A DNA stretch of 8,731 nucleotides from a virus (Duplodnaviria; Heunggongvirae; Uroviricota; Caudoviricetes): IMG/VR virus record IMGVR_UViG_2531839532_000005, positions 1 through 8,731 of that record. One strand, given 5' to 3'. The notes under the pieces were generated by a model. That model did not search any database, was not told the DNA's origin, and saw nothing but the letters and a program-made list of their open reading frames with translations. Below, piece by piece: positions 1-8,731 of the stretch. The translations under genes and the position numbers were made by a program. Position 1 is the first letter of the stretch. Each line of letters begins with the position of its first letter.

Positions 1-341
1 CCCGTCGACCGTCCGGCACAGTCCATCACAGTGATAAAGGTTCTCAGTATGTATCGCTGGCCTACACACAGCGGCTTAAGGAAGCCGGATTACTGGCATC
101 AACAGGAAGTACTGGTGACTCGTATGACAACGCGATGGCGGAGAGCATCAATGGCCTTTACAAAGCGGAGGTAATACACCGTAAGAGCTGGAAAAACCGG
201 ACAGAAGTGGAGCTGGCCACACTCACGTGGGTGGACTGGTATAACAATCGACGATTGCTGGAAAGGCTGGGCCATATCCCACCGGCAGAAGCAGAAAAAG
301 CTTATTATGCTTCCATCGGAAACGATGATCTGGCAGCCTGA
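1..341 (+). CDS. IS3-family transposase OrfB (DDE integrase-core domain), C-terminal fragment; 5' part lies upstream of the window
   Basis: Frame 3 is open from the window edge to TGA at 339-341. The translation ...HSDKGSQYVSLAYTQRLKEAGLLASTGSTGDSYDNAMAESINGLYKAEVIHRKSWKNRTEVELATLTWVDWYNNRRLLERLGHIPPAEAEKAYY carries the third acidic region of IS3-family DDE transposases (D-N-x-x-x-E-S) and the C-terminal YNxxRxHxxLGxxxPxE tail. Assigned from memory of the family signature, not from a search. Confidence 0.8.
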   Translation, partial: RRPSGTVHHSDKGSQYVSLAYTQRLKEAGLLASTGSTGDSYDNAMAESINGLYKAEVIHRKSWKNRTEVELATLTWVDWYNNRRLLERLGHIPPAEAEKAYYASIGNDDLAA

Positions 342-426
342 GTTCACAGATAAAACACTCTCCAGGAAACCCGGGGCGGTTCATTTTGTTTACTGATGCC
401 GTAGAAAGGTCTCTTAGCAAGAATAA
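1..426 (+). mobile_element. Right-hand portion of an IS3-family insertion sequence; exact right terminus not determined (somewhere between about 345 and 426)
   Basis: The OrfB 3' end is followed by a short non-coding tail. IS3-family elements normally end a few tens of bp after the orfB stop. The hairpin at 427-445 and the fall in GC beyond about 460 look like they belong to the neighbouring gene, not the IS. I could not recognise the terminal inverted repeat by eye. Confidence 0.45.
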
Positions 427-445
427 CCCCAGTTTAACACTGGGG
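427..445 (-). terminator. Putative intrinsic terminator for the low-GC gene 463-1128 (stem CCCCAGT, loop TTAAC, stem ACTGGGG)
   Basis: Perfect 7-bp inverted repeat 427-433/439-445 located 18 nt downstream of the minus-strand stop at 463-465. On the minus-strand transcript the hairpin is followed by UUAUUCUUGCU (U-rich). Confidence 0.35.
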
Positions 446-462
446 TTGCTTGCAACAGAGCG

Positions 463-1128
463 TCAATTTTTAAGAGCACTGATACAGAAAAATTGCATGA
501 CATTTTTCTTTATTGATTTAAATAAGCTAAACATTGTGACAGGTTCAAAGCTAGTTAACTCGATGAATTCCTCTCTCATTTGAGAAAGTAACAGCTGACG
601 TACTGATTCAATTTCTGCTGTTTGTTTTCTCAAATATCTTGAGAAAACAAGTAGTTCATCAGCTGTTTTGTTTTGGCCATTTATAAACGTAACAGGTTGC
701 CCTAGCTTAGATATGAGAAAAAATTGGTTAATTTTATCAAGTAATGGTGGAATTATTTTTTTCCATTCAGCCCATTCTTTTTCACGATGAAACTCCAGAC
801 TGTGCTGACATGTTCTTAGTTGCTGCATATCAATCGCCCAGACCTCACTCTCATCGAGGCAATCTTTCCATTTGCTAATTACATTAATGTCAAATTTTTT
901 GTTCGGTAGATAATTATCTTTGGCGTGCGCTTCCAGTATAGAGGCAAGAGTACCTGTATATTGCATCAAATTGGTAGATGCTCGGTTTACTAGCTCTGAT
1001 ATTCGATCTAGTTGAGTTGTTCTAATCTCAAGTGCTTTCTTTTTACGTTCATTTCGTAAAGCAAAATATGCAGCAAGGCAGACTGCAGCAACTGTGGCTG
1101 CTGGTGCGATAAAAATTTGCATATTCAT
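463..1128 (-). CDS. Hypothetical protein, 221 aa: N-terminal single transmembrane/signal-anchor segment followed by a charged, probably helical domain; low-GC orphan (moron-like) gene
   Basis: ORF on the minus strand. I prefer the ATG at 1128-1126 (MNMQIFIAPAATVAAVCLAAYFAL...) because AGGA sits about 8 nt upstream, whereas the ORF-track start at 1152 has no RBS. Hydrophobic stretch IFIAPAATVAAVCLAAYFAL is followed by RNERKKK (positive-inside). G+C is roughly 35-40% on sampled 60-nt stretches versus about 55-60% in the flanking tail genes. No recognisable catalytic motif. Confidence 0.65.
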   Translation of the reverse strand: MNMQIFIAPAATVAAVCLAAYFALRNERKKKALEIRTTQLDRISELVNRASTNLMQYTGTLASILEAHAKDNYLPNKKFDINVISKWKDCLDESEVWAIDMQQLRTCQHSLEFHREKEWAEWKKIIPPLLDKINQFFLISKLGQPVTFINGQNKTADELLVFSRYLRKQTAEIESVRQLLLSQMREEFIELTSFEPVTMFSLFKSIKKNVMQFFCISALKN

Positions 1129-1322
1129 AACATGGATCCTTTGACATGGCATTTATGGGGGCTATTTCAGCAGTAATCATTTGTGTGTAAATTTGTTTGC
1201 TACAAATTAACATATTCTAATGTAAGGCTCTTCTGATTTTGACACCGGGTAGGCTGTCAGATTGGTTATGATTCTTGCTGTAAGCGCGTTAGCAAATGTC
1301 AGGGCTAATGCATCTAAGTTGT

Positions 1323-2432
1323 TTACTCTGTTTCTGCTATCCATTCCGGGATTTTGGCTTCAAGCTCAAGCTGCGTGGTAAAGCCACTGTTATCAATGGT
1401 GTGCTCGGCTTTTGCAATGATCCAGTCCTGATTATCAATCTCGCTTTTAAATCCTGTTACCGTGCCATGCATTTCGGGGTAGAGCTCTGCTCGTCCACGT
1501 GCCAGCGTGATGGAAAATGATGCGGCTCCGCGTTGTAGCTGCTGCCACTTTGCCGCCGCTGCGCGTCTTGCTGCCTGCTCGTTCTGATAAGTTTTGCGTA
1601 ACACAAACACATTGCCTTCCGCGCCTTCCATATAATCACCTTCACGGCTGCTGCTTTTCTCTTTTTTCGGTTTTGGCGGTTTGCGGCGTTTCACGCTGAC
1701 TTTTTTCTTTTTCCCGTAATTAAGATCAAGCCAGTAAGCGCGTACCCCCGTATACGCCTCGCGGTCAGCAATGCGGAACTGATGGCGATCGCCGCTGCTG
1801 CGTGTGATGGCGAACGATGGCAACGGCTGGCCCTGTGCGTTCACGCCACCGCCGGGCATGATGAATAACAGATTGCCGCTTTTTACCGTGGTGATTGCGC
1901 CCAGCATTTCCGCCATGCGCGTAAGGAAGGACATATCGCTTTCTTCGGTCTGGTCGGCGTGGTCGATTTCGATATCCATCAGCATTTCGCTGATTTGCGG
2001 TTTCAGACCATACCGATGAGCGATGGCGGATACCACACGCTCAACGGTCACATCATGCCAGGACACCTCACGTTTAACGTTAAATTCATCCCGAAAATCT
2101 GCGCTTCTGGCTGAAACGGTCAGCCTGTCCGGCGGTCCTTCGTGAGCGATTTCATCAACAATGTAAGTGCCTTTTTCAGTCAGCGGTTCCCCTTTCCAGC
2201 CAATGAGAACCGTCAGACGCGCGCCCCGTGGCGGTAGCTGCAACTGACCATCCGCATCATCCAGCGTGATGGTGAGCTGGTCCGCTTCAAATCCCCGGTT
2301 GTCGGTCAGTGACAGGCTCATCAGGCGTTCTGCCACGCCGGACAGCGTTTTACCCTCCGCGAGAATATCAAAATCCGGCATTTTCACGGGGTCTGTGCCC
2401 TGACTGAGCAATTGCATGGTGGTGTCGGTCAT
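1323..2432 (-). CDS. D: Phage late control gene D protein / tail protein D (gpD family), about 369 aa
   Basis: Minus-strand ORF. Start chosen at ATG 2432-2430 (MTDTTMQLL...) preceded by GGGAGGGAG. The ORF-track N-terminal extension up to 2564 is Arg/Pro/Ser-rich and probably non-coding. Motifs typical of gpD: RLMSLSLTDNRGFEADQLTITLDDADGQLQLPPRGARLTVLIGWKG, SARSADFR, SWHD, FLTRMAE, the lysine-rich KKKKVSVKRRKPPKPKKEK linker, YMEGAEGNVF, AKWQQLQRGAASFSITLARG, NSGFTTQLELE. Confidence 0.85.
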   Translation of the reverse strand: MTDTTMQLLSQGTDPVKMPDFDILAEGKTLSGVAERLMSLSLTDNRGFEADQLTITLDDADGQLQLPPRGARLTVLIGWKGEPLTEKGTYIVDEIAHEGPPDRLTVSARSADFRDEFNVKREVSWHDVTVERVVSAIAHRYGLKPQISEMLMDIEIDHADQTEESDMSFLTRMAEMLGAITTVKSGNLLFIMPGGGVNAQGQPLPSFAITRSSGDRHQFRIADREAYTGVRAYWLDLNYGKKKKVSVKRRKPPKPKKEKSSSREGDYMEGAEGNVFVLRKTYQNEQAARRAAAAKWQQLQRGAASFSITLARGRAELYPEMHGTVTGFKSEIDNQDWIIAKAEHTIDNSGFTTQLELEAKIPEWIAETE

Positions 2433-2589
2433 CTGCTCCCTCCCTGTGTGGCATGGTCGCATGTGCGTGCGGAGGGGGTTACTGCTTTTTGTTGTCGCCG
2501 TGGCGGGAGAACGGCGCAGGGGTGAGATTACGCGCGTGGTGGGTGATGATTGTTGCCGAATCATTTAACGGATACAAGGGGCTGAAGCT
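2433..2589. promoter_or_regulatory. Divergent intergenic region between D (-) and FI (+); candidate late-type promoter for the FI operon with an imperfect TGT-N12-ACA-like dyad at 2493-2510
   Basis: 157 bp separate the two divergent start codons. TGTcgccgtggcgggAGA at 2493-2510 matches two of three positions of the second half of the P2/P4 late-promoter dyad. GATGAT at 2545-2550 is a weak -10 candidate. The FI RBS AAGGGG lies at 2576-2581. None of this is strong; the promoter call is tentative. Confidence 0.3.
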
Positions 2590-3774
2590 ATGAGTGAAAC
2601 TCGTTTTCATGGTGCCCGTGTTACGGAAAATACCGACCTGGTAACAGCGATTAACGATGTTGATTCCAGCGTTATCGGTATCGTGGCAACGGCGGATGAT
2701 GCGGACGCGAAGCTGTTCCCGCTGAACAAGCCCACACTGCTGACCCGCGTCAATGACGTGCTGGGAAAATGCGGAACAACGGGGACGCTTTATCGTGCGC
2801 TTAAGGCCATCGCAGACCAGGTGAGCACAAAGGTGATCGTCGTTCGCGTGGCTGAACACAAAGAAGAAGACGAAAAGACGCAGGATCAACTGGTTATCGG
2901 TGGTTCTGAGGATGACGGCAGCTATACGGGGATGTATGCGCTGCTTGTTGCAGAGCAGGATGAAAGCATCGGATACCGTCCGCGTATTCTGGCCGCGCCG
3001 GAGCTGGACACGGAGGCGGTGACAAAATCCCTGTGCGTGATTGCGGGTAAACTGCGCGCATTTGTGTATGCCTCATGTCACGGCTGTAACACGATGGCTG
3101 AAGCGATTACCTACCGCCAGAAATTCAACGAACGTGAAGTGATGCTCTTATGGCCGGACTTCATCGCCTACAACCCGAAAAGGGGCGAAAACGAAACGTT
3201 CCCCGCGCCTGCTTATGCGTGCGGCCTTCGTGCGTACATTGACCATGAGCAGGGCTGGCACAAATCGCTGTCCAACGTTCCGGTTAAAAATGTGCTGGGG
3301 ATGTCGAGGCATGTGTTCTGGTCGTTGCAGGCCGAAGACTGCGATGCCAACAGCCTCAACAACAAAGAAATCACGACCATTATTCGTCGCAACGGGTTCC
3401 GCTTCTGGGGCAACCGCACACCGGAAACGAACGCCTACATTTTTGAGGTGTATACCCGAACCGCACAGGTGCTGGCTGATTCAATTGCGGAAGCGCAGTT
3501 TGAAACCATCGACAGTCCACTGACGCCTGCGAACGTGAAGGATGTTATCAGTGCCATCAGGGCAAAACTGGATTCACTGGTGACTGCCGGGAAACTGATT
3601 GGCGCGGAGTGCTGGTATGACGTGGTGGATAACAGCACCACGGATTTACGTCAGGGGCGTGTGCGTATTCGCTACAAATATACGCCCGTTCCGCCACTGG
3701 AAGACATGGAGCTTTACCAGACGTTTACTGATGAATACTTTGAACCCGCATTTGCGGTGCTGGGAGGTGCCTGA
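2590..3774 (+). CDS. FI: Contractile tail sheath protein (P2 FI family), 394 aa
   Basis: ATG at 2590 with RBS AAGGGG. Length and motifs match P2-type sheath proteins (FPLNKP, KLRAF, WPDF, EQGWHK..LSNV, IRRNGFRFWGNRT, YTRTAQV, YTPVPPLE). Stop TGA 3772-3774 overlaps the next start by one base (TGATG). Confidence 0.9.
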   Translation: MSETRFHGARVTENTDLVTAINDVDSSVIGIVATADDADAKLFPLNKPTLLTRVNDVLGKCGTTGTLYRALKAIADQVSTKVIVVRVAEHKEEDEKTQDQLVIGGSEDDGSYTGMYALLVAEQDESIGYRPRILAAPELDTEAVTKSLCVIAGKLRAFVYASCHGCNTMAEAITYRQKFNEREVMLLWPDFIAYNPKRGENETFPAPAYACGLRAYIDHEQGWHKSLSNVPVKNVLGMSRHVFWSLQAEDCDANSLNNKEITTIIRRNGFRFWGNRTPETNAYIFEVYTRTAQVLADSIAEAQFETIDSPLTPANVKDVISAIRAKLDSLVTAGKLIGAECWYDVVDNSTTDLRQGRVRIRYKYTPVPPLEDMELYQTFTDEYFEPAFAVLGGA

Positions 3775-4286
3775 TGGCTGTGCCAAAACATCTTCGCTTT
3801 TTTACGCTGTTTGTGGATGGTGAAAACGAAGTGGGTAAGGTGACGTCCGTCACTTTGCCTAAGCTGACGCGCAAAACCGACAGCTACCGGGGTGGTGGCA
3901 TGATGGGGGCGGTAAGTATTGATCTCGGCCTGGACGACTCCGCGCTTGATGCGAGCTTTGTCATGGGGGGCGCAGTTCGTGCGCTGTTCCTTAAATATGG
4001 CGGCACGATTGACGGCACGCTGCTGCGTTTTGCGGGTGAATACTACACCGATGCAGAAAGCGATCTGTATGAAATCGAGATGCGCGGGCGTGTGACGGAA
4101 ATTGATATGGGGGAAGCCAAACAGGGCGAAGCCACATCACACACTTACGCTGTCAAAAACACCTACTACAAGCTGAGCGTTAACGATCGCCCGCTGTGGG
4201 AAATCGACCTGTTGAACCACATCTACCGGAAGGACGGCAAGGACATTGTGCCTGACCGTATCCGTTCCGCGCTTGGGCTTGGCTGA
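3774..4286 (+). CDS. FII: Tail tube protein (P2 FII family), 170 aa
   Basis: ATG 3774 overlapping the FI stop, with RBS GGGAGG at 3762-3767. The size (170 aa) and its position directly after the sheath gene fit P2 FII. Confidence 0.88.
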   Translation: MAVPKHLRFFTLFVDGENEVGKVTSVTLPKLTRKTDSYRGGGMMGAVSIDLGLDDSALDASFVMGGAVRALFLKYGGTIDGTLLRFAGEYYTDAESDLYEIEMRGRVTEIDMGEAKQGEATSHTYAVKNTYYKLSVNDRPLWEIDLLNHIYRKDGKDIVPDRIRSALGLG

Positions 4287-4303
4287 TAAGTAATATGCAG
4301 GCG

Positions 4304-4322
4304 GCGCAGTGCGTCGCCTCTG
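4304..4322 (+). other. Intercistronic stem-loop between tube and E (GGCGGCG-cagtg-CGUCGCC, one G-U pair), possible partial terminator or mRNA stabiliser
   Basis: 7-bp stem with a 5-nt loop seen directly in the sequence, 18 nt after the FII stop. There is no strong U-tract (UCUGACUG follows), so if functional it is more likely an attenuator or 3'-end stabiliser than a full terminator. Confidence 0.25.
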
Positions 4323-4341
4323 ACTGAAAAGGAGACAACTG

Positions 4342-4716
4342 ATGAAAGACATCGATACTGAAACCCGGAATAACACCGTGGCGGATGATGTGACGGCAGG
4401 TGAGGATATGGCTGTCGAACGTGGCGTAAAACTGACCCGACCAATTGAGCGTGGTGGCGAAAAAATCACGTATGTGGAGATCACCGGGGCTATTGAACAG
4501 GCTGGATCCCTGCGTGGTCTGTCGCTGTCTGATGTGCTGAATCTGAAAGCGGATACCATGTTCACGCTGTTGCCTCGCGTGACCTCGCCACGACTGGATG
4601 AAGTGATGATTAAAAAAATGTCGTCACGCGATTTTATTCAGTTGTGCGCTGTGGCTGTAAATTTTATGAGCGAGCCAGACTCTGGCGCGAAGAGCGTGCA
4701 GGAGACGGCAGCGTAA
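4342..4716 (+). CDS. E: Tail assembly chaperone E (gpE family), 124 aa
   Basis: ATG 4342 with RBS AAGGAG at 4328-4333. It sits between tube and tape-measure genes and is followed by an overlapping -1 frame ORF, which is the conserved chaperone arrangement. Confidence 0.85.
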   Translation: MKDIDTETRNNTVADDVTAGEDMAVERGVKLTRPIERGGEKITYVEITGAIEQAGSLRGLSLSDVLNLKADTMFTLLPRVTSPRLDEVMIKKMSSRDFIQLCAVAVNFMSEPDSGAKSVQETAA

Positions 4717-4880
4717 TCACCCTGGTGTGCTTTGAGCACATCGAAGATCTGGTGGCAGATATCGCCGCCATTTTTAACTGGTCGCCCGCCGAAATCTTCA
4801 TGATGACGCCCGGCGAAGTGGTTAGCTGGCGTGAGCGGGCGGCACTTCGCAGCGGGAATGCAGACAATGAAGACTCTTGA
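4342..4880 (+). CDS. E+E' fusion produced by programmed -1 ribosomal frameshift at the A7 run 4612-4618; E' portion roughly 4614-4880
   Basis: The -1 frame has a stop at 4611-4613 and is then open from 4614 to TGA 4878-4880. The E frame reads ATT AAA AAA ATG across seven consecutive A residues (4612-4618), a Lys-tRNA slippery site. After slipping the sequence continues ...IKK-NVVTRFYSVVRCG...NADNEDS. The E' end overlaps the start of T. Confidence 0.65.
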
Positions 4881-7674
4881 TATCCGGGTCGCTTTCAGCG
4901 CCGTTGACAGGCTGACCCGGCCTGCCGAAAACGCCCGCCGCCTGATGGGGCAGTTTGGTGACTCCATCCAGCGAACGCAGGGGGCGATCAAAAATCTCGA
5001 GCGTCAGGCGCGTTCATTTGAGCGCGCCCGTGACGCTGTCAGTAAAGCGGATGCTGGCATATTGAAAGCACGACGCCAGCTTAACGCTCTTAATCAGTTA
5101 CAACGCACGGGTACAGTGCTCAGCGAAAAACAACAAAAGCTGATGCAGCAGTTAAGCACCCGGCTTGAACGCCTGAATGAATCGCGCACACGGGAAATTC
5201 AGAAAATGCGGGAACTTGGCGGAGAGCTGAAACGCCACGGCATTTCCCTGACAGGCAGCGATAACACCATCCAGCAGGCCATCAGACGCACCGAACAGTA
5301 CAACAACCAGCTTGAACGTGAACGGCAGGCGCTTGCGCGTGTAACGCGGGCGCGTGAGCGGTATTCGCGCGCGCAGGAAACCGCGGGAAAACTGAAAACA
5401 GGTGGTGCGCTGGCAATTGGTGCGGCAGCGGCGGGCGGCTATGCTGCCGGGCGTTTTTTGCAGCCCGCGATCGGGTTCGGCAAAGAGATGTCCCGCGTTC
5501 AGGCGCTGACGCGAATCGACCAGAACAGCCCGCAGTTTAAGGCGCTGCGTGAGCAGGCATTAAAACTTGGCTCTGAAACGCAGTTCACCGCAGGCGATGC
5601 CGCCAGTGGGCAGGCATTTCTTGCAATGGCTGGCTTCACACCGCAGGCCATTCAGGCTGCGCTTCCCGGAGTGCTGAGCATGGCAACGGCTGGCGGTATG
5701 GATCTCGGCGAGACGGCAGATATTGGCTCAAATATCCTGACGCAGTTCGGCCTTTCTGCTGACCAGATGGACCGGGTCGGTGACACACTCACCGCAGCGT
5801 TTACCCGTACCAACACTGACCTTCGCGCACTGGGCGAAACCATGAAATATGCAGGTCCGGTGGCGGGTAAGCTGGGAATATCGCTGGAGCAGGCCGCAGC
5901 GATGGCTGGCGTGCTGGCGAATATGGGCATCAGAGGGAGTGATGCCGGGACGGCAATGCGTGCCAGCCTGGCTCGTCTGGCATCACCGCCAAAGGCGGCG
6001 GCAGAAGCTCTGAAAGAGCTGGGCGTGTCCGTCTCGGATGCCGGGGGCAAAATGCGCCCGATGGAGGATGTGCTGGCCGACCTTTATAAAGCCACCCGCA
6101 AATACGGGGAAGTTGACCGGGTATCGTTCTTTAAGGACATTGCCGGAGAAGAGGCTTTCACATCGTTTATGGCGCTCGTTGATGCAGCGGGTGACGGTTC
6201 CTTACCTAAACTGAGAAAAGAACTTGAAGGCGCACGCGGTGAGGCTGAACGCACAGCAAAGGTTATGGCCAACAACCTTGACGGCGATCTGAAATCACTC
6301 GGCAGTGCATGGGAAGGGTTGCGCATCCGCATTGCAGATCTGATTGACGGTCCGCTGCGTTCTGTCACGCAGTGGCTCACACGGGTGGTATCAAGGGTGA
6401 CGGCGCTGGCGCAGGCCCATCCGACACTGACGCGCCAGCTACTGATAGCAGGCGGTGCGTTGCTGGCAATGACTGCAACGGTTGGCTCGTTGTCGCTGGC
6501 TATTGGTGTGCTTGCTGGCCCGCTGGCAAAACTGCGTCTTGGTTTTTCTCTCCTGACCGGATCAATGAATGCTGTCAGGGTCCTGCCAGCACTATGGGGA
6601 ATGGTGACGGGTTCCGTTTCTTTACTGGGAGGCGCTATCGGGGCGCTGTTCAGTCCGGTCGGGTTGATTGCTGCAGCGTTTGTCGCTGCGGCGGTTCTCA
6701 TCTGGAAATACTGGGAACCCATCAAGGCGTTTTATGCCGGGGTGTTCAGTGGGATTATGGAGCGACTGGCCCCGTTGCGCGAAACCTTTGAACGGTTTGG
6801 CCCTGTTTTTGACGCAATCGGAAGCGGGATCAGCCAGGTGTTTAACTGGTTTAAATCGCTGCTGTCACCGATGGAGTCCAGCAAGGAAACGCTGGATAAA
6901 TGTACCAGTGCTGGCGAGATATTCGGTAACGTTCTTGGCGGTGCGTTACAGCTTGTTCTGACACCTGCAAAAATGCTACTGGATACGCTGGCGTGGATAC
7001 TTGAAAAACTCGGTGTGCTTCCGGATGAAGCGGAAAGGGCGCGCAAGAAAATCGAAGACGCACAGCGTGCGGCCATTCTTCAGGACAAGGTTGCCTTGCT
7101 TCAGGGGGACCTGGCGAAAATCAATCCGCCGAAGCCTGTGGAAAATGGCAATGGCACCGGAGGTGATAAACCCAAAGACAACAAACCGCTCACAGACAGC
7201 AATACCGGTACGCTACGCAGACTCAGCAAAATTGCTGATAACACAGGTAAGCTGGTTGATGAGACGAAAAAACGCATTGGCCCCGGCGATATTGTCTTTA
7301 AGAACCTGCCCCGCGCACTTGCTGTTCGTGGGGAGTGGCAGGAGCGGAAGATTGCGCAGGTCAGTAAGCCTGCTTCCGCAATCAACATCACACCCGTGGT
7401 CCCGACTCCTCTGCCTCCGGCGCTGGTCCCTGTTGTTGCGGCCAGCTCCCGCCCGGTGGCGGAGGCCATACGATCGCCAGTGGCATCAGTTCCTGCAACT
7501 TCCCGTAACCGGGAGCCTGTTGTCTCCGGATTTGGCGGTGAAATTCATGTTCATCTGCATAACGTTGTTACGCAGAATCCCCGCGAACTGGCGAAACTGG
7601 TCGGTGAAATGGTCAGGGCAGAATTGGAACGACGCGACCGTGCCGGACGTGGCAGTTTTTACGATAAAGATTGA
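4867..7674 (+). CDS. T: Tail tape measure protein (gpT family), about 935 aa
   Basis: Long ORF directly after E/E'. Start chosen at ATG 4867 (MKTLDIRV...) with GGGAA 9-10 nt upstream; ATG 4859 and the track start 4831 are alternatives. N-terminal coiled-coil-like region, a central Ala/Gly-rich domain, hydrophobic segments encoded around 6415-6715 (LLIAGGALLAMTATVGSLSLAIGVLAG..., GLIAAAFVAAAVLIW) and a Pro-rich C-terminus are all typical of tape measure proteins. Stop TGA 7672-7674. Confidence 0.85.
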   Translation: MKTLDIRVAFSAVDRLTRPAENARRLMGQFGDSIQRTQGAIKNLERQARSFERARDAVSKADAGILKARRQLNALNQLQRTGTVLSEKQQKLMQQLSTRLERLNESRTREIQKMRELGGELKRHGISLTGSDNTIQQAIRRTEQYNNQLERERQALARVTRARERYSRAQETAGKLKTGGALAIGAAAAGGYAAGRFLQPAIGFGKEMSRVQALTRIDQNSPQFKALREQALKLGSETQFTAGDAASGQAFLAMAGFTPQAIQAALPGVLSMATAGGMDLGETADIGSNILTQFGLSADQMDRVGDTLTAAFTRTNTDLRALGETMKYAGPVAGKLGISLEQAAAMAGVLANMGIRGSDAGTAMRASLARLASPPKAAAEALKELGVSVSDAGGKMRPMEDVLADLYKATRKYGEVDRVSFFKDIAGEEAFTSFMALVDAAGDGSLPKLRKELEGARGEAERTAKVMANNLDGDLKSLGSAWEGLRIRIADLIDGPLRSVTQWLTRVVSRVTALAQAHPTLTRQLLIAGGALLAMTATVGSLSLAIGVLAGPLAKLRLGFSLLTGSMNAVRVLPALWGMVTGSVSLLGGAIGALFSPVGLIAAAFVAAAVLIWKYWEPIKAFYAGVFSGIMERLAPLRETFERFGPVFDAIGSGISQVFNWFKSLLSPMESSKETLDKCTSAGEIFGNVLGGALQLVLTPAKMLLDTLAWILEKLGVLPDEAERARKKIEDAQRAAILQDKVALLQGDLAKINPPKPVENGNGTGGDKPKDNKPLTDSNTGTLRRLSKIADNTGKLVDETKKRIGPGDIVFKNLPRALAVRGEWQERKIAQVSKPASAINITPVVPTPLPPALVPVVAASSRPVAEAIRSPVASVPATSRNREPVVSGFGGEIHVHLHNVVTQNPRELAKLVGEMVRAELERRDRAGRGSFYDKD

Positions 7675-7686
7675 GGAGTCATGGCC

Positions 7687-8175
7687 ATGATGATGATCTA
7701 CGGCATGTTTGTTTTTGAGCTGCGCACATTGCCGCATCAGCAGTTACAGCAAAATAAAAGCTGGCGGCATGTGAAAAATGAACGCGTTAACCGTTCAGCA
7801 AGCTGGCAGTATATCGGGGCAGGCGATGATCGCATCGTGCTTTCTGGTGTGCTTTATCCTGAAATCACAGGTGGCGAAGTGTCGCTGTCGCTGCTGACCA
7901 CGCAGGCGTATACAGGACGCCCCTGGCCTCTGATTGATGGCGTCGGACAGATTTACGGCATGTATGTACTGACTGAAACGAATACGACCCGCTCCGAGTT
8001 TGATCGCTACGGTAAGGCGAAAAAGATAGAATTTTCACTGACTCTTGAACGCTGTGATGAGGATTTGCGGGAGCGCCTGCAATCCTCATCGTTCAGTGAT
8101 ATGCTGTCCGGCTTCAAAGATAAGGTCACATCATCCCTTAACAGCGCGGCCAGCTCCGTTAAAGGGCTGTTTTGA
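7687..8175 (+). CDS. U: Tail protein U (gpU family), about 162 aa
   Basis: ORF directly after T. RBS GAGGAG at 7673-7678 favours ATG 7687 (MMMIYGMFVFELRTLP...) over 7681 (only 2 nt spacing) or 7690. Size and position match P2 gpU. Stop TGA 8173-8175. Confidence 0.85.
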   Translation: MMMIYGMFVFELRTLPHQQLQQNKSWRHVKNERVNRSASWQYIGAGDDRIVLSGVLYPEITGGEVSLSLLTTQAYTGRPWPLIDGVGQIYGMYVLTETNTTRSEFDRYGKAKKIEFSLTLERCDEDLRERLQSSSFSDMLSGFKDKVTSSLNSAASSVKGLF

Positions 8176-8182
8176 TTAACGC

Positions 8183-8212
8183 AAAACCGCTAATGGTCAG
8201 ATTAGCGGTTTT
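8183..8212. terminator. Bidirectional intrinsic terminator between convergent U and invertase genes: perfect 12-bp stem AAAACCGCTAAT / ATTAGCGGTTTT with 6-nt loop GGTCAG
   Basis: The perfect inverted repeat is seen directly. On the + strand it is followed by CATTTTCC (U-rich). The right arm contains the invertase stop codon (TTA at 8202-8204 on +) and its last four codons. Confidence 0.6.
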
Positions 8213-8731
8213 CATTTTCCTGAGTCTGCCTGGTTGTTTCTTCAGCCTGTATATCGCCTACAGGGTGATAACGATAAATCGTCGATATGCCGATGTCGTA
8301 AATGATCGCCAGTTGTTTCCTGTCATGACCGTTTTTAATCAGCCTCGCTATTTGCTCGTGTTGTTCTTTTGTCAACTTCGGGCGACGTCCGCCAATGCGT
8401 CCTTGTGCGCGTGCTGCTGCCAGCCCGGCCAGTGTACGCTCTACAATTAATTCACGTTCCATTTCGGCTAAAGCTCCCATGACGTGAAAAAAGAAACGCC
8501 CCATGGGTGTTGATGTGTCAATGCTGTCCGTTAGACTACGGAAATTAACACCTTTTTCCCGCAATTCCTCAATAAGCGTGATCAGGTGTTTCATACTTCT
8601 GCCCAGTCTGTCCAGCTTCCAGACAACCAGCGTATCTCCTTCTGATAGCGTTCTGAGCAGTTTTTTCAATCCCGGTCTGGCTGATTTCGTTCCGCTGATT
8701 TTATCTTCAAAAATCAGTTCACATCCTGCGC
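8202..8731 (-). CDS. Serine recombinase, Hin/Gin/Pin/Cin-type DNA invertase; N-terminal 25-30 residues including the catalytic serine lie beyond the window end
   Basis: The minus-strand frame is open to the window edge. The translation ...CELIFEDKISGTKSARPGLKKLLRTLSEGDTLVVWKLDRLGRSMKHLITLIEELREKGVNFRSLTDSIDTSTPMGRFFFHVMGALAEMERELIVERTLAGLAAARAQGRIGGRRPKLTKEQHEQIARLIKNGHDRKQLAIIYDIGISTIYRYHP matches the resolvase catalytic domain and C-terminal HTH of Hin-family invertases almost motif for motif. The ORF-track start at 8669 is an internal Met. Confidence 0.9.
   Translation of the reverse strand, partial: AGCELIFEDKISGTKSARPGLKKLLRTLSEGDTLVVWKLDRLGRSMKHLITLIEELREKGVNFRSLTDSIDTSTPMGRFFFHVMGALAEMERELIVERTLAGLAAARAQGRIGGRRPKLTKEQHEQIARLIKNGHDRKQLAIIYDIGISTIYRYHPVGDIQAEETTRQTQENENR

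Follow-up and report, generated by a model that had tools for sequence, protein, structure and literature searches.

The question raised by this locus is why a P2-like tail operon stands back to back with gene D and end to end with a DNA invertase, and whether the invertase put it there. The window, the whole 8,731-nt stretch of DNA analysed here, holds D, FI, FII, E, T and U. The annotated P2 record shows these genes as FI-FII-E-E'-T-U-D-ogr, all co-directional, as an earlier sequence-only reading of the window had stated. That reading explained the departure from P2 by one inversion of the FI-U segment, possibly catalysed by the adjacent invertase at secondary sites, and named a lineage-specific gene order and a misassembly as alternatives. 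The reading we favour, at a probability of about 0.85, is a single ancestral inversion that became fixed, with the invertase independent of it and the late promoter probably carried along to serve D. The genes and the terminator candidate are as follows.

1-385, plus strand: 3' end of IS629 (IS3 family), with rve_2/rve_3 Pfam hits and 97% matches to IS629 in Stx phages
463-1152, minus strand: orphan cargo (moron) gene between D and ogr, encoding 221-229 aa, with a low G+C of 36-39% and a hydrophobic N-terminus
1323-2432, minus strand: gpD (baseplate hub, 'late control D'), 369 aa, intact; PF05954 (Phage_GPD), phrog_52 at E=2e-166
2590-3774, plus strand: FI, tail sheath (Pfam sheath domains)
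3774-4286, plus strand: FII, tail tube; PF04985 (Phage_tube), E=8e-46
4342-4716, plus strand: E, with TAC_7 and P2_GpE Pfam hits on 4342-4716 and 4644-4880
4342-4880, plus strand: E+E' through a -1 frameshift; candidate slippery heptamer A_AAT_TTT at 4659-4665, in the correct register
4867-7674, plus strand: T, tape measure (PGAP start; the open frame is 4831-7674); PF10145
7681-8175, plus strand: U, tail protein; PF06995 (P2_GpU), E=5.5e-39
8183-8212, either strand: candidate bidirectional terminator, a 12-bp hairpin between an A-run and a T-run (terminator scan; fold of -17.6 kcal/mol, z = -2.6)
8202-8731, minus strand: 3' 176 codons of a Hin/Gin/Cin/Pin-type serine DNA invertase; Resolvase (PF00239) and HTH_7 (PF02796) on 8202-8669, phrog_125 'DNA invertase' at E=2e-99

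Judged by its sequence, the window is the tail-core end of a P88-like prophage (Xuanwuvirus, Peduoviridae) of E. coli 300709, which matches it at 100% identity with 2 SNPs. The phages P88 (94% identity over 85% of the window), PhiSM (96%), P884B11 and others are 92-96% identical to it and have the same gene order. The high nucleotide identity to P88 and the prophage-wide collinearity apart from indels place the prophage in Xuanwuvirus. Orthologues of FI, FII, E/E', T, U and D were all found by Pfam and by tblastn/BLASTP against P2 (33-49% identity), as expected of a Peduoviridae tail core. Gene order is no criterion for this family, and the ICTV puts P88 in Peduoviridae. The gpD is a full-length orthologue of P2 gpD (49% identity over residues 19-369) and 99% identical to the D of P88 and PhiSM; its open frame spans 1323-2564 on the minus strand, with the ATG at 2432 as the likely start. 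Annotation pipelines mislabel or shorten D in the inverted-block context. Mapping against P88 put the insertion of IS629 and the cargo gene exactly between the D stop and ogr, a gene present in the prophage; PGAP annotates the IS3 transposase at locus coordinates L003:19128-20341. The cargo protein had no match in Pfam, PADLOC or PHROGs; its gene accompanies the tail genes in phage 520873 and in over 650 E. coli genomes. The Rfam gathering scan of the window found no RNA family.

The gene identities and coordinates held up under Pfam: D is divergent from FI across a 157-bp spacer (2433-2589), and U, ending at 8175, converges on an invertase gene that extends from 8202 past the window end. The two stops, at 8175 and 8202-8204, are 26 bp apart, and the hairpin at 8183-8212 would be a terminator common to both genes. 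The whole order is H-G, the invertible fibre segment with the invertase, then U-T-E-FII-FI pointing back towards them, then D and ogr pointing away. Compared with P2, only the FI-U block is flipped, as the geometry of a single inversion predicts; the other modules of P88 (Q P / O..S / V..G / D ogr / int C / cox..A) keep the P2 orientation. D lies opposite to FI-U and is uncoupled from the F operon, and this holds clade-wide in place of the co-directional FI-FII-E-T-U-D. The canonical U to D adjacency was found in 388 of 522 phage records, among them all sampled ones whose D is 38-53% identical; P2, Cartapus, ST340-VIM1phi10.2, vB_YenM_56.17 and RSA1 show it as well.

The distribution of the inverted order decides in favour of a lineage-specific arrangement. 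All 107 loci with D of at least 65% identity in which FI and U were both detected show the inversion, in a sample from which lineages with D at 53-63% identity are absent, and FI is opposite to D in 20 further truncated loci. The order spans at least three phage genera (Xuanwuvirus, Reginaelenavirus and Senquatrovirus, besides many prophages) and about 20 Enterobacterales genera, from which the 40 species-representative genome loci (D 65-99% identical) are drawn; SEN5 and Kp4871-3, of other genera, show it too. One locus with U on the D strand (L108) was considered as an exception and set aside: its tape-measure gene is split between two prophage variants, and FI-U is not flipped. Both orientations were looked for in complete E. 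coli genomes, and only one was found: the actual D/FI junction is present in 1,355 of 5,426, and the flipped junction occurs in none of the 1,411 that carry these genes. The inverted loci are monophyletic in neighbour-joining trees of D, FI, FII and U, computed with five outgroups and without bootstrap support. The inverted FI-U is an old, fixed order of this lineage and not a recent event. It is also functional, because P88 and PhiSM, which have it, are described as active phages (PMC6456863). The simplest account is that the FI-U operon (5.6 kb) turned over once in the ancestor of the clade and then became fixed in that orientation.

The mechanism first suggested, in which the adjacent serine invertase flipped FI-U at secondary sites, recently or reversibly, so that both orientations may coexist, draws on two features: the invertase gene abuts the block, and one weak site-like 26-mer in the D/FI spacer, at 2486, agrees with a crossover site at 15 of 24 positions. 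The real sites lie elsewhere, however, and score 19-20/24, against only 12/24 at the U/invertase junction; the match at 2486 ties with four others in the window, overlaps the conserved Ogr-type site described below and is at chance level. The search of 2300-8731 for inverted repeats gave 73 chance-level pairs, none of them at the two junctions, and no inverted repeat brackets the block. The only pair that spans it (2337-2353 and 8096-8112; 17 nt, 82%) lies within coding sequence and was discarded. Since the flipped junction is missing from all 1,411 E. coli genomes with these genes and the same order is found in invertase-free members (SEN5 and 34 of the 40 species-representative loci), we regard this mechanism as highly improbable. 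An older event, in which an invertase located between G and FI in the ancestor turned the block at secondary sites that have since decayed, is a better candidate, though an unlikely one. Such an ancestor is plausible because Cartapus and vB_YenM_56.17, of related genera, carry an invertase exactly upstream of FI, so that the 'restored' order invertase-FI...U-D proposed from the sequence does exist. Against it, no residual sites are left, the most divergent inverted members (SEN5 and L045) are without the invertase, and it is the 3' end of the gene that abuts the block, not the site-bearing 5' end; a site would also have been needed at the tight U/D junction, where the genes of canonical phages overlap.

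The operon need not have turned in place. Phage genomes are mosaic, variability is known for the slot beside the block (fun/Z in P2), and a tail-core operon from another phage could have replaced the original in opposite orientation. Genes inside and outside the block are, however, about equally diverged from P2 (43-49%), with FI, FII and U (43-46%) resembling D (49%) and slightly more diverged than J (54%), and trees of genes from both sides recover the same monophyletic group. Replacement is in our view very unlikely. An assembly artefact at both junctions, the other alternative of the sequence-only reading, is excluded, as many phages sequenced independently share the identical D/FI junction with the 1,355 complete E. 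coli genomes. We retain the single ancestral inversion, later fixed.

The invertase itself has another partner. Its full gene encodes 199 aa (L003:28202-28801, that is, to 8801 in window coordinates); it is incomplete here because the window ends, with no mutation involved. The protein, which begins MLIGYVRVSTNDQ, has a Resolvase domain with the N-terminal serine and a C-terminal HTH_7, as members of the serine invertase family do. Two inverted 26-bp crossover sites, TTCTCCCAAACCAA(C/G)GT..., lie outside the window at L003:28857-28882 and 30733-30758 and bound a tail-fibre segment that comprises the fibre C-terminus and assembly genes. The invertase occurs in only 6 of the 40 genome loci and 29 of the 62 viral loci of the clade. 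This Gin-like cassette, independent of the block and patchy in distribution, flips the adjacent tail-fibre C-terminal segment; it neither made nor keeps the orientation of FI-U.

The inversion leaves the transcription of D to be accounted for, and the spacer between D and FI offers these candidate elements.

2433-2589, between the divergent genes: 157-bp D/FI intergenic region, the proposed bidirectional activator-dependent late promoter
2453-2471, minus strand: putative D-side promoter half, the -10-like GACCAT (reverse complement of 2453-2458) and the box CAYGCGCGCG (2460-2471), from conservation
2492-2510, both directions: candidate Ogr-type activator site TTGT-N12-AGA with its dyad centre at 2501.5, from the clade alignment
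2545-2563, plus strand: putative FI-side promoter half, the -10-like GATGAT (2545-2550) together with a conserved start region that reads GAATCA here and GAACTCA in the clade, from conservation

The spacer is 145-161 bp long in nearly all of 44 distinct clade sequences, with three outliers of 177-195 bp. In the candidate activator site, a single dyad whose clade form is TTGT-N12-A(G/C)A, TTGT and A2508 are invariant in the 41 aligned distinct sequences and A2510 is kept in 38 of them. Each hexamer lies 46 bp from the dyad centre; positions A2 and T6 on the D side, and A2, A5 and T6 on the FI side, are conserved in all 41 sequences, and the CAYGCGCGCG box is near-invariant in the clade. The dyad centre is 88 bp from the FI ATG, a distance that is 83 bp at P2 pF. 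The P/O intergenic region of this phage also holds a single copy of the motif, and its P side bears a similar CGCGCGCG box along with a hexamer placed at an equal distance. A search of the window for exact TGT-N12-ACA gave no hit in the spacer, where the site emerged with one mismatch and the help of the clade alignment. The scan of the spacer for sigma-70 consensus promoters was also negative, as is expected for P2-type late promoters. Measured against the Ogr/Delta-type promoter of P2 (TGT-N12-ACA centred about 55 bp before the start, with a weak -10 and without a -35), the geometry is P2-like and the half-site is AGA. Of the earlier claim that D is uncoupled and needs a promoter of its own, the first part stands; the second is probable, since the conserved Ogr-type dyad and the flanking -10-like hexamers suggest that D probably has its own promoter in the D/FI spacer.

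The inversion would have carried the pF late promoter along and left its dyad-symmetric Ogr site between FI and D, where one site would drive both genes from mirror-image -10 elements, like P2 pP/pO, and D would thereby stay under late control. We put it at somewhat better than even that the spacer is a compact, mirror-symmetric bidirectional late promoter that arose when the inversion moved the pF Ogr site beside D, that this site took over the former last cistron of the operon, and that CAYGCGCGCG, also on the P side of pP/pO, would be an undescribed element of leftward late promoters. The predicted D leader is short, about 14 nt, which counts against the promoter model, as does the AGA that the window has in place of an ACA half-site. 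The CAYGCGCGCG box could be something other than a promoter element.

As for novelty, the inverted order can already be read from dozens of annotated phage genomes in public databases and from roughly one in four complete E. coli genomes; term searches of papers on P88, PhiSM, SEN4/5, global P2-like diversity and P2/P4 defence hotspots found no discussion of the inversion. The discovery value is small, the arrangement being ordinary and present in public genomes. The inverted FI-U is a clean synapomorphy for one Peduoviridae clade (Xuanwuvirus, Reginaelenavirus, Senquatrovirus) and a natural case of an operon split by inversion with its regulation probably kept through a symmetric activator site. 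It also cautions annotators that an adjoining invertase is no evidence that a segment is invertible.

Among known systems, P88 and PhiSM (Xuanwuvirus) are closest, with 92-96% identity over 1313-8729 and the same order and orientations, the convergent invertase included. The window's copy differs by IS629 and the orphan cargo gene between D and ogr, and its prophage by a 3.2-kb deletion of L-S genes outside the window, a loss that makes it defective. Like the Gin/Cin/Pin/Hin (G-segment-type) systems, its invertase adjoins a 1.9-kb segment that encodes alternative fibre C-termini and the assembly genes. Inverted TTCTCCCAAACC... sites delimit this segment, and one of the two falls within the fibre gene. 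Nothing unusual was found in comparison with these systems; the cassette simply lies next to the inverted tail operon and is oriented towards it. In Escherichia phage Cartapus (Elveevirus) and Yersinia phage vB_YenM_56.17 (Duonihilunusvirus) an invertase cassette likewise separates the fibre genes from the tail-core operon, but FI-U-D is canonical and co-directional, the order that the sequence-only reading proposed as ancestral.

With the P2 F operon (FI-FII-E-E'-T-U-D, transcribed from pF under Ogr), the window shares seven orthologous genes at 33-49% identity, the E/E' frameshift, the overlap of T with E' and an Ogr-type site that precedes the FI ATG by about 83-88 bp. Because its FI-U block is turned with respect to D, ogr and the V-G operon, transcription from pF cannot reach D as it does in P2. 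The model for the D/FI spacer is the pair of divergent late promoters pP/pO, for which the P2 record annotates a single activator site. The window departs from it in the half-site, AGA and not ACA, in the extra conserved CAYGCGCGCG box on the D side and in that we infer the function of D/FI. The likeness lies in one dyad between two divergent late genes, with predicted starts about 55 bp to either side, and the P/O spacer of the same phage (154 bp) has the layout of its D/FI spacer (157 bp).

The FI-U block (FI, FII, E/E', T and U, plus strand) lies opposite to D, and every gene call of the sequence-only reading was confirmed by ORF listing and Pfam. The features are as follows.

135-341, tail of an IS3-family transposase
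463-1152, minus strand, 229-aa ORF, unassignable
1323-2564, minus strand, gpD; translation probably begins at the ATG at 2432
2433-2589, D/FI spacer, 157 bp
2590-3774, plus strand, FI, tail sheath
3774-4286, plus strand, FII, tail tube
4342-4716, plus strand, E, with E' in the -1 frame to 4880
4867-7674, plus strand, T, tape measure
7681-8175, plus strand, U
8176-8201, U-invertase gap, 26 bp
8202 to past the window end, minus strand, serine recombinase

D is a full-length orthologue of P2 gpD with 369 intact codons, despite its RefSeq/PGAP split (window 1323-2564; L003:21323-22176, L003 being the E. coli 300709 locus that holds the prophage) into a 266-aa 'VgrG/Pvc8 family' protein and a partial pseudo-ORF. 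In the PhiSM record, D is named 'ogr/Delta-like zinc finger' and the sheath gene 'late control gene D'. E/E' has a candidate slippery site, A_AAT_TTT, at 4659-4665. U and the invertase, which converge, probably share a terminator: a 12-bp hairpin (8183-8212) preceded by an A-run, followed by a T-run and overlapping the stop codon of the invertase.

The E. coli 300709 chromosome, where ihfA adjoins the prophage, matches the window apart from two substitutions (window versus NZ_CP025903.1: G vs T at 3183, C vs T at 8108). Several members of the genus Xuanwuvirus (Peduoviridae), among them Escherichia phage P88, Citrobacter phage PhiSM and Xuanwuvirus P884B11, match the window at 92-96% identity. 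P88 and PhiSM, active temperate phages according to PMC6456863, have exactly the gene order of the window. The source prophage itself is very probably defective, because about 3.2 kb outside the window, equivalent to P88 16941-20113, is missing at L003:34390-34397; the end of M, L, X, holin, endolysin, a DUF2570 gene, R and most of S are gone. Furthermore, IS629 and the orphan gene at 463-1152 are inserted exactly between the D stop and ogr (window 1-1322; L003:18740-21322), whereas D and ogr are just ~45 bp apart in P88 and most clade members. The orphan gene has low G+C and a TM-like N-terminus, and searches of Pfam, PADLOC and PHROGs gave no match to it. More than 650 E. coli genomes have it alongside the tail genes but without the IS, and therefore the D-ogr slot behaves as a moron/cargo site.

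The annotated P2 record reads FI-FII-E-E'-T-U-D-ogr, all co-directional. Since the gene calls and coordinates of the window hold and P2 shows this canonical order, the non-canonical D/FI arrangement is real. In P88, int and C, cox to A, Q and P, O to S, V to G, and D and ogr keep their P2 orientation; the FI-U block alone, located between D and the tail-fibre genes with their invertase cassette, is reversed. This module comparison bears out the proposal that one FI-U inversion gives back the canonical order. Escherichia phage Cartapus and Yersinia phage vB_YenM_56.17 have this 'restored' order, their invertase lying directly upstream of FI.

The D protein served to fetch 47 loci from bacterial genomes that represent their species and 80 loci from IMG/VR, and the proteins of the window were placed on all of them by tblastn. 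In all 107 loci where D, FI and U were detected (D at least 65% identical), FI-U is opposite to D and FI adjoins D; FI is likewise opposite to D in 20 additional, truncated loci, the only canonical loci in this mapping being purposely added outgroups. The 40 genome loci span about 20 genera, including Salmonella, Edwardsiella, Serratia, Erwinia, Pantoea, Klebsiella, Brenneria, Pectobacterium and Symbiopectobacterium, and Salmonella phage SEN5 (Senquatrovirus) and Klebsiella phage Kp4871-3 (Reginaelenavirus) share the inverted order. When phage records were searched by tblastn with a fusion of U and D, 388 of 522 proved to have the two genes side by side and co-directional, including P2, PSP3 and phages of Ralstonia, Burkholderia, Mannheimia and Xanthomonas; all sampled records with D at least 63% identical match D alone, with U elsewhere in the record. 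Three further outgroup genera, inspected directly, are canonical. The inverted order is thus a fixed lineage order, as one alternative of the sequence-only reading had it. Contigs in two Firmicutes assemblies (L009, a Vagococcus sp. assembly, and L050, a Planococcaceae MAG) carry D 98-99% identical to that of the window, probably through contamination or mis-binning.

Neighbour-joining places the inverted loci in one clade, with all five canonical outgroups outside, in the trees of D, FI, FII and U, and divergence from P2 is much the same for genes within the block as for those beyond it. Both results point to a single ancient in situ inversion and disfavour the import of a foreign tail module. 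It had also been raised as a possibility that the adjacent invertase flipped FI-U at secondary sites, or that both orientations coexist; neither holds. In the variable slot taken up by fun(Z) in P2, the invertase is an ordinary host-range switch of the Gin/Cin/Pin type. Its real crossover sites, TTCTCCCAAACCAACGTTTAAGAAAA and TTCTCCCAAACCAAGGTAATCAAGAA (L003:28857-28882 and 30733-30758), flank a 1.9-kb segment of alternative fibre C-termini and assembly genes just outside the window. When each 26-mer of the window was scored against these sites (maximum 24; real sites 19-20), the U/invertase junction reached 12 and the D/FI spacer 15, the latter being one of five such matches in the window and overlying the proposed promoter element described below. 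A search for inverted repeats found none bracketing the block, and among loci with the inverted order, only 6 of 40 from genomes and 29 of 62 from viruses have a recognisable invertase. A chimeric query for the flipped junction (D 5' end plus the reverse complement of the U 3' end) was covered to at least 80% in 0 of 1,411 E. coli genomes carrying either half, whereas the actual junction, queried as a control with the D and FI 5' ends joined, was covered in 1,355 of 5,426. In IMGVR_UViG_2654587728_000014 (L108:430-7576), the tape-measure gene is broken at residue 443, with its halves on opposite strands (99% vs 89% identity) and two oppositely oriented invertase genes between them; it looks as if two distinct Xuanwuvirus-like prophages had recombined or undergone inversion, or as if the assembly were chimeric.

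The sequence-only reading therefore stands in its geometry, its lineage-order alternative and its inferred separate promoter for D, but not in an invertase-mediated or polymorphic inversion. The inverted order is already in many deposited, annotated genomes, and term searches found no remark on it in papers on P88, PhiSM, SEN4/5, global P2-like diversity and P2/P4 defence hotspots. The best description is a rearrangement that defines a clade and has modest evolutionary interest.

Across 44 distinct clade sequences the D/FI spacer almost always measures 145-161 bp; three outliers have 177-195 bp. A promoter scan found no sigma-70 consensus promoter in it. Among 41 aligned distinct sequences, TTGT (2492-2495) and A2508 are invariant and A2510 nearly so; this TTGT-N12-A(G/C)A element would be a P2 Ogr-type dyad, and many clade members have a perfect TGT-N12-ACA. 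Mirror -10-like hexamers flank the dyad centre (2501.5) at 46 bp each: GATGAT on the FI side (2545-2550; A2, A5 and T6 kept in 41/41) and GACCAT in the direction of D (2453-2458; A2 and T6 kept in 41/41). Just upstream of the D-side hexamer, a CAYGCGCGCG box (2460-2471) is nearly invariant (37-41 of 41 at most positions), exceeding the conservation of neighbouring coding sequence. The 154-bp P/O spacer of the same phage has one copy of the dyad motif with hexamers at the same offsets, and a similar, similarly placed box, CGCGCGCG, on its P side. The prophage carries ogr, and D is probably expressed from an Ogr-type divergent promoter in the spacer, as the conserved dyad and hexamers suggest. 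The dyad centre lies ~69 bp from the ATG of D and 82-88 bp from that of FI, compared with 83 bp at P2 pF. Because the P2 record has a single activator site for divergent pP and pO, with starts 111 bp apart, such a shared-site model predicts starts near 2557 (FI) and 2446 (D), the latter giving a D leader of ~14 nt that would contain GGGAGGGAG.
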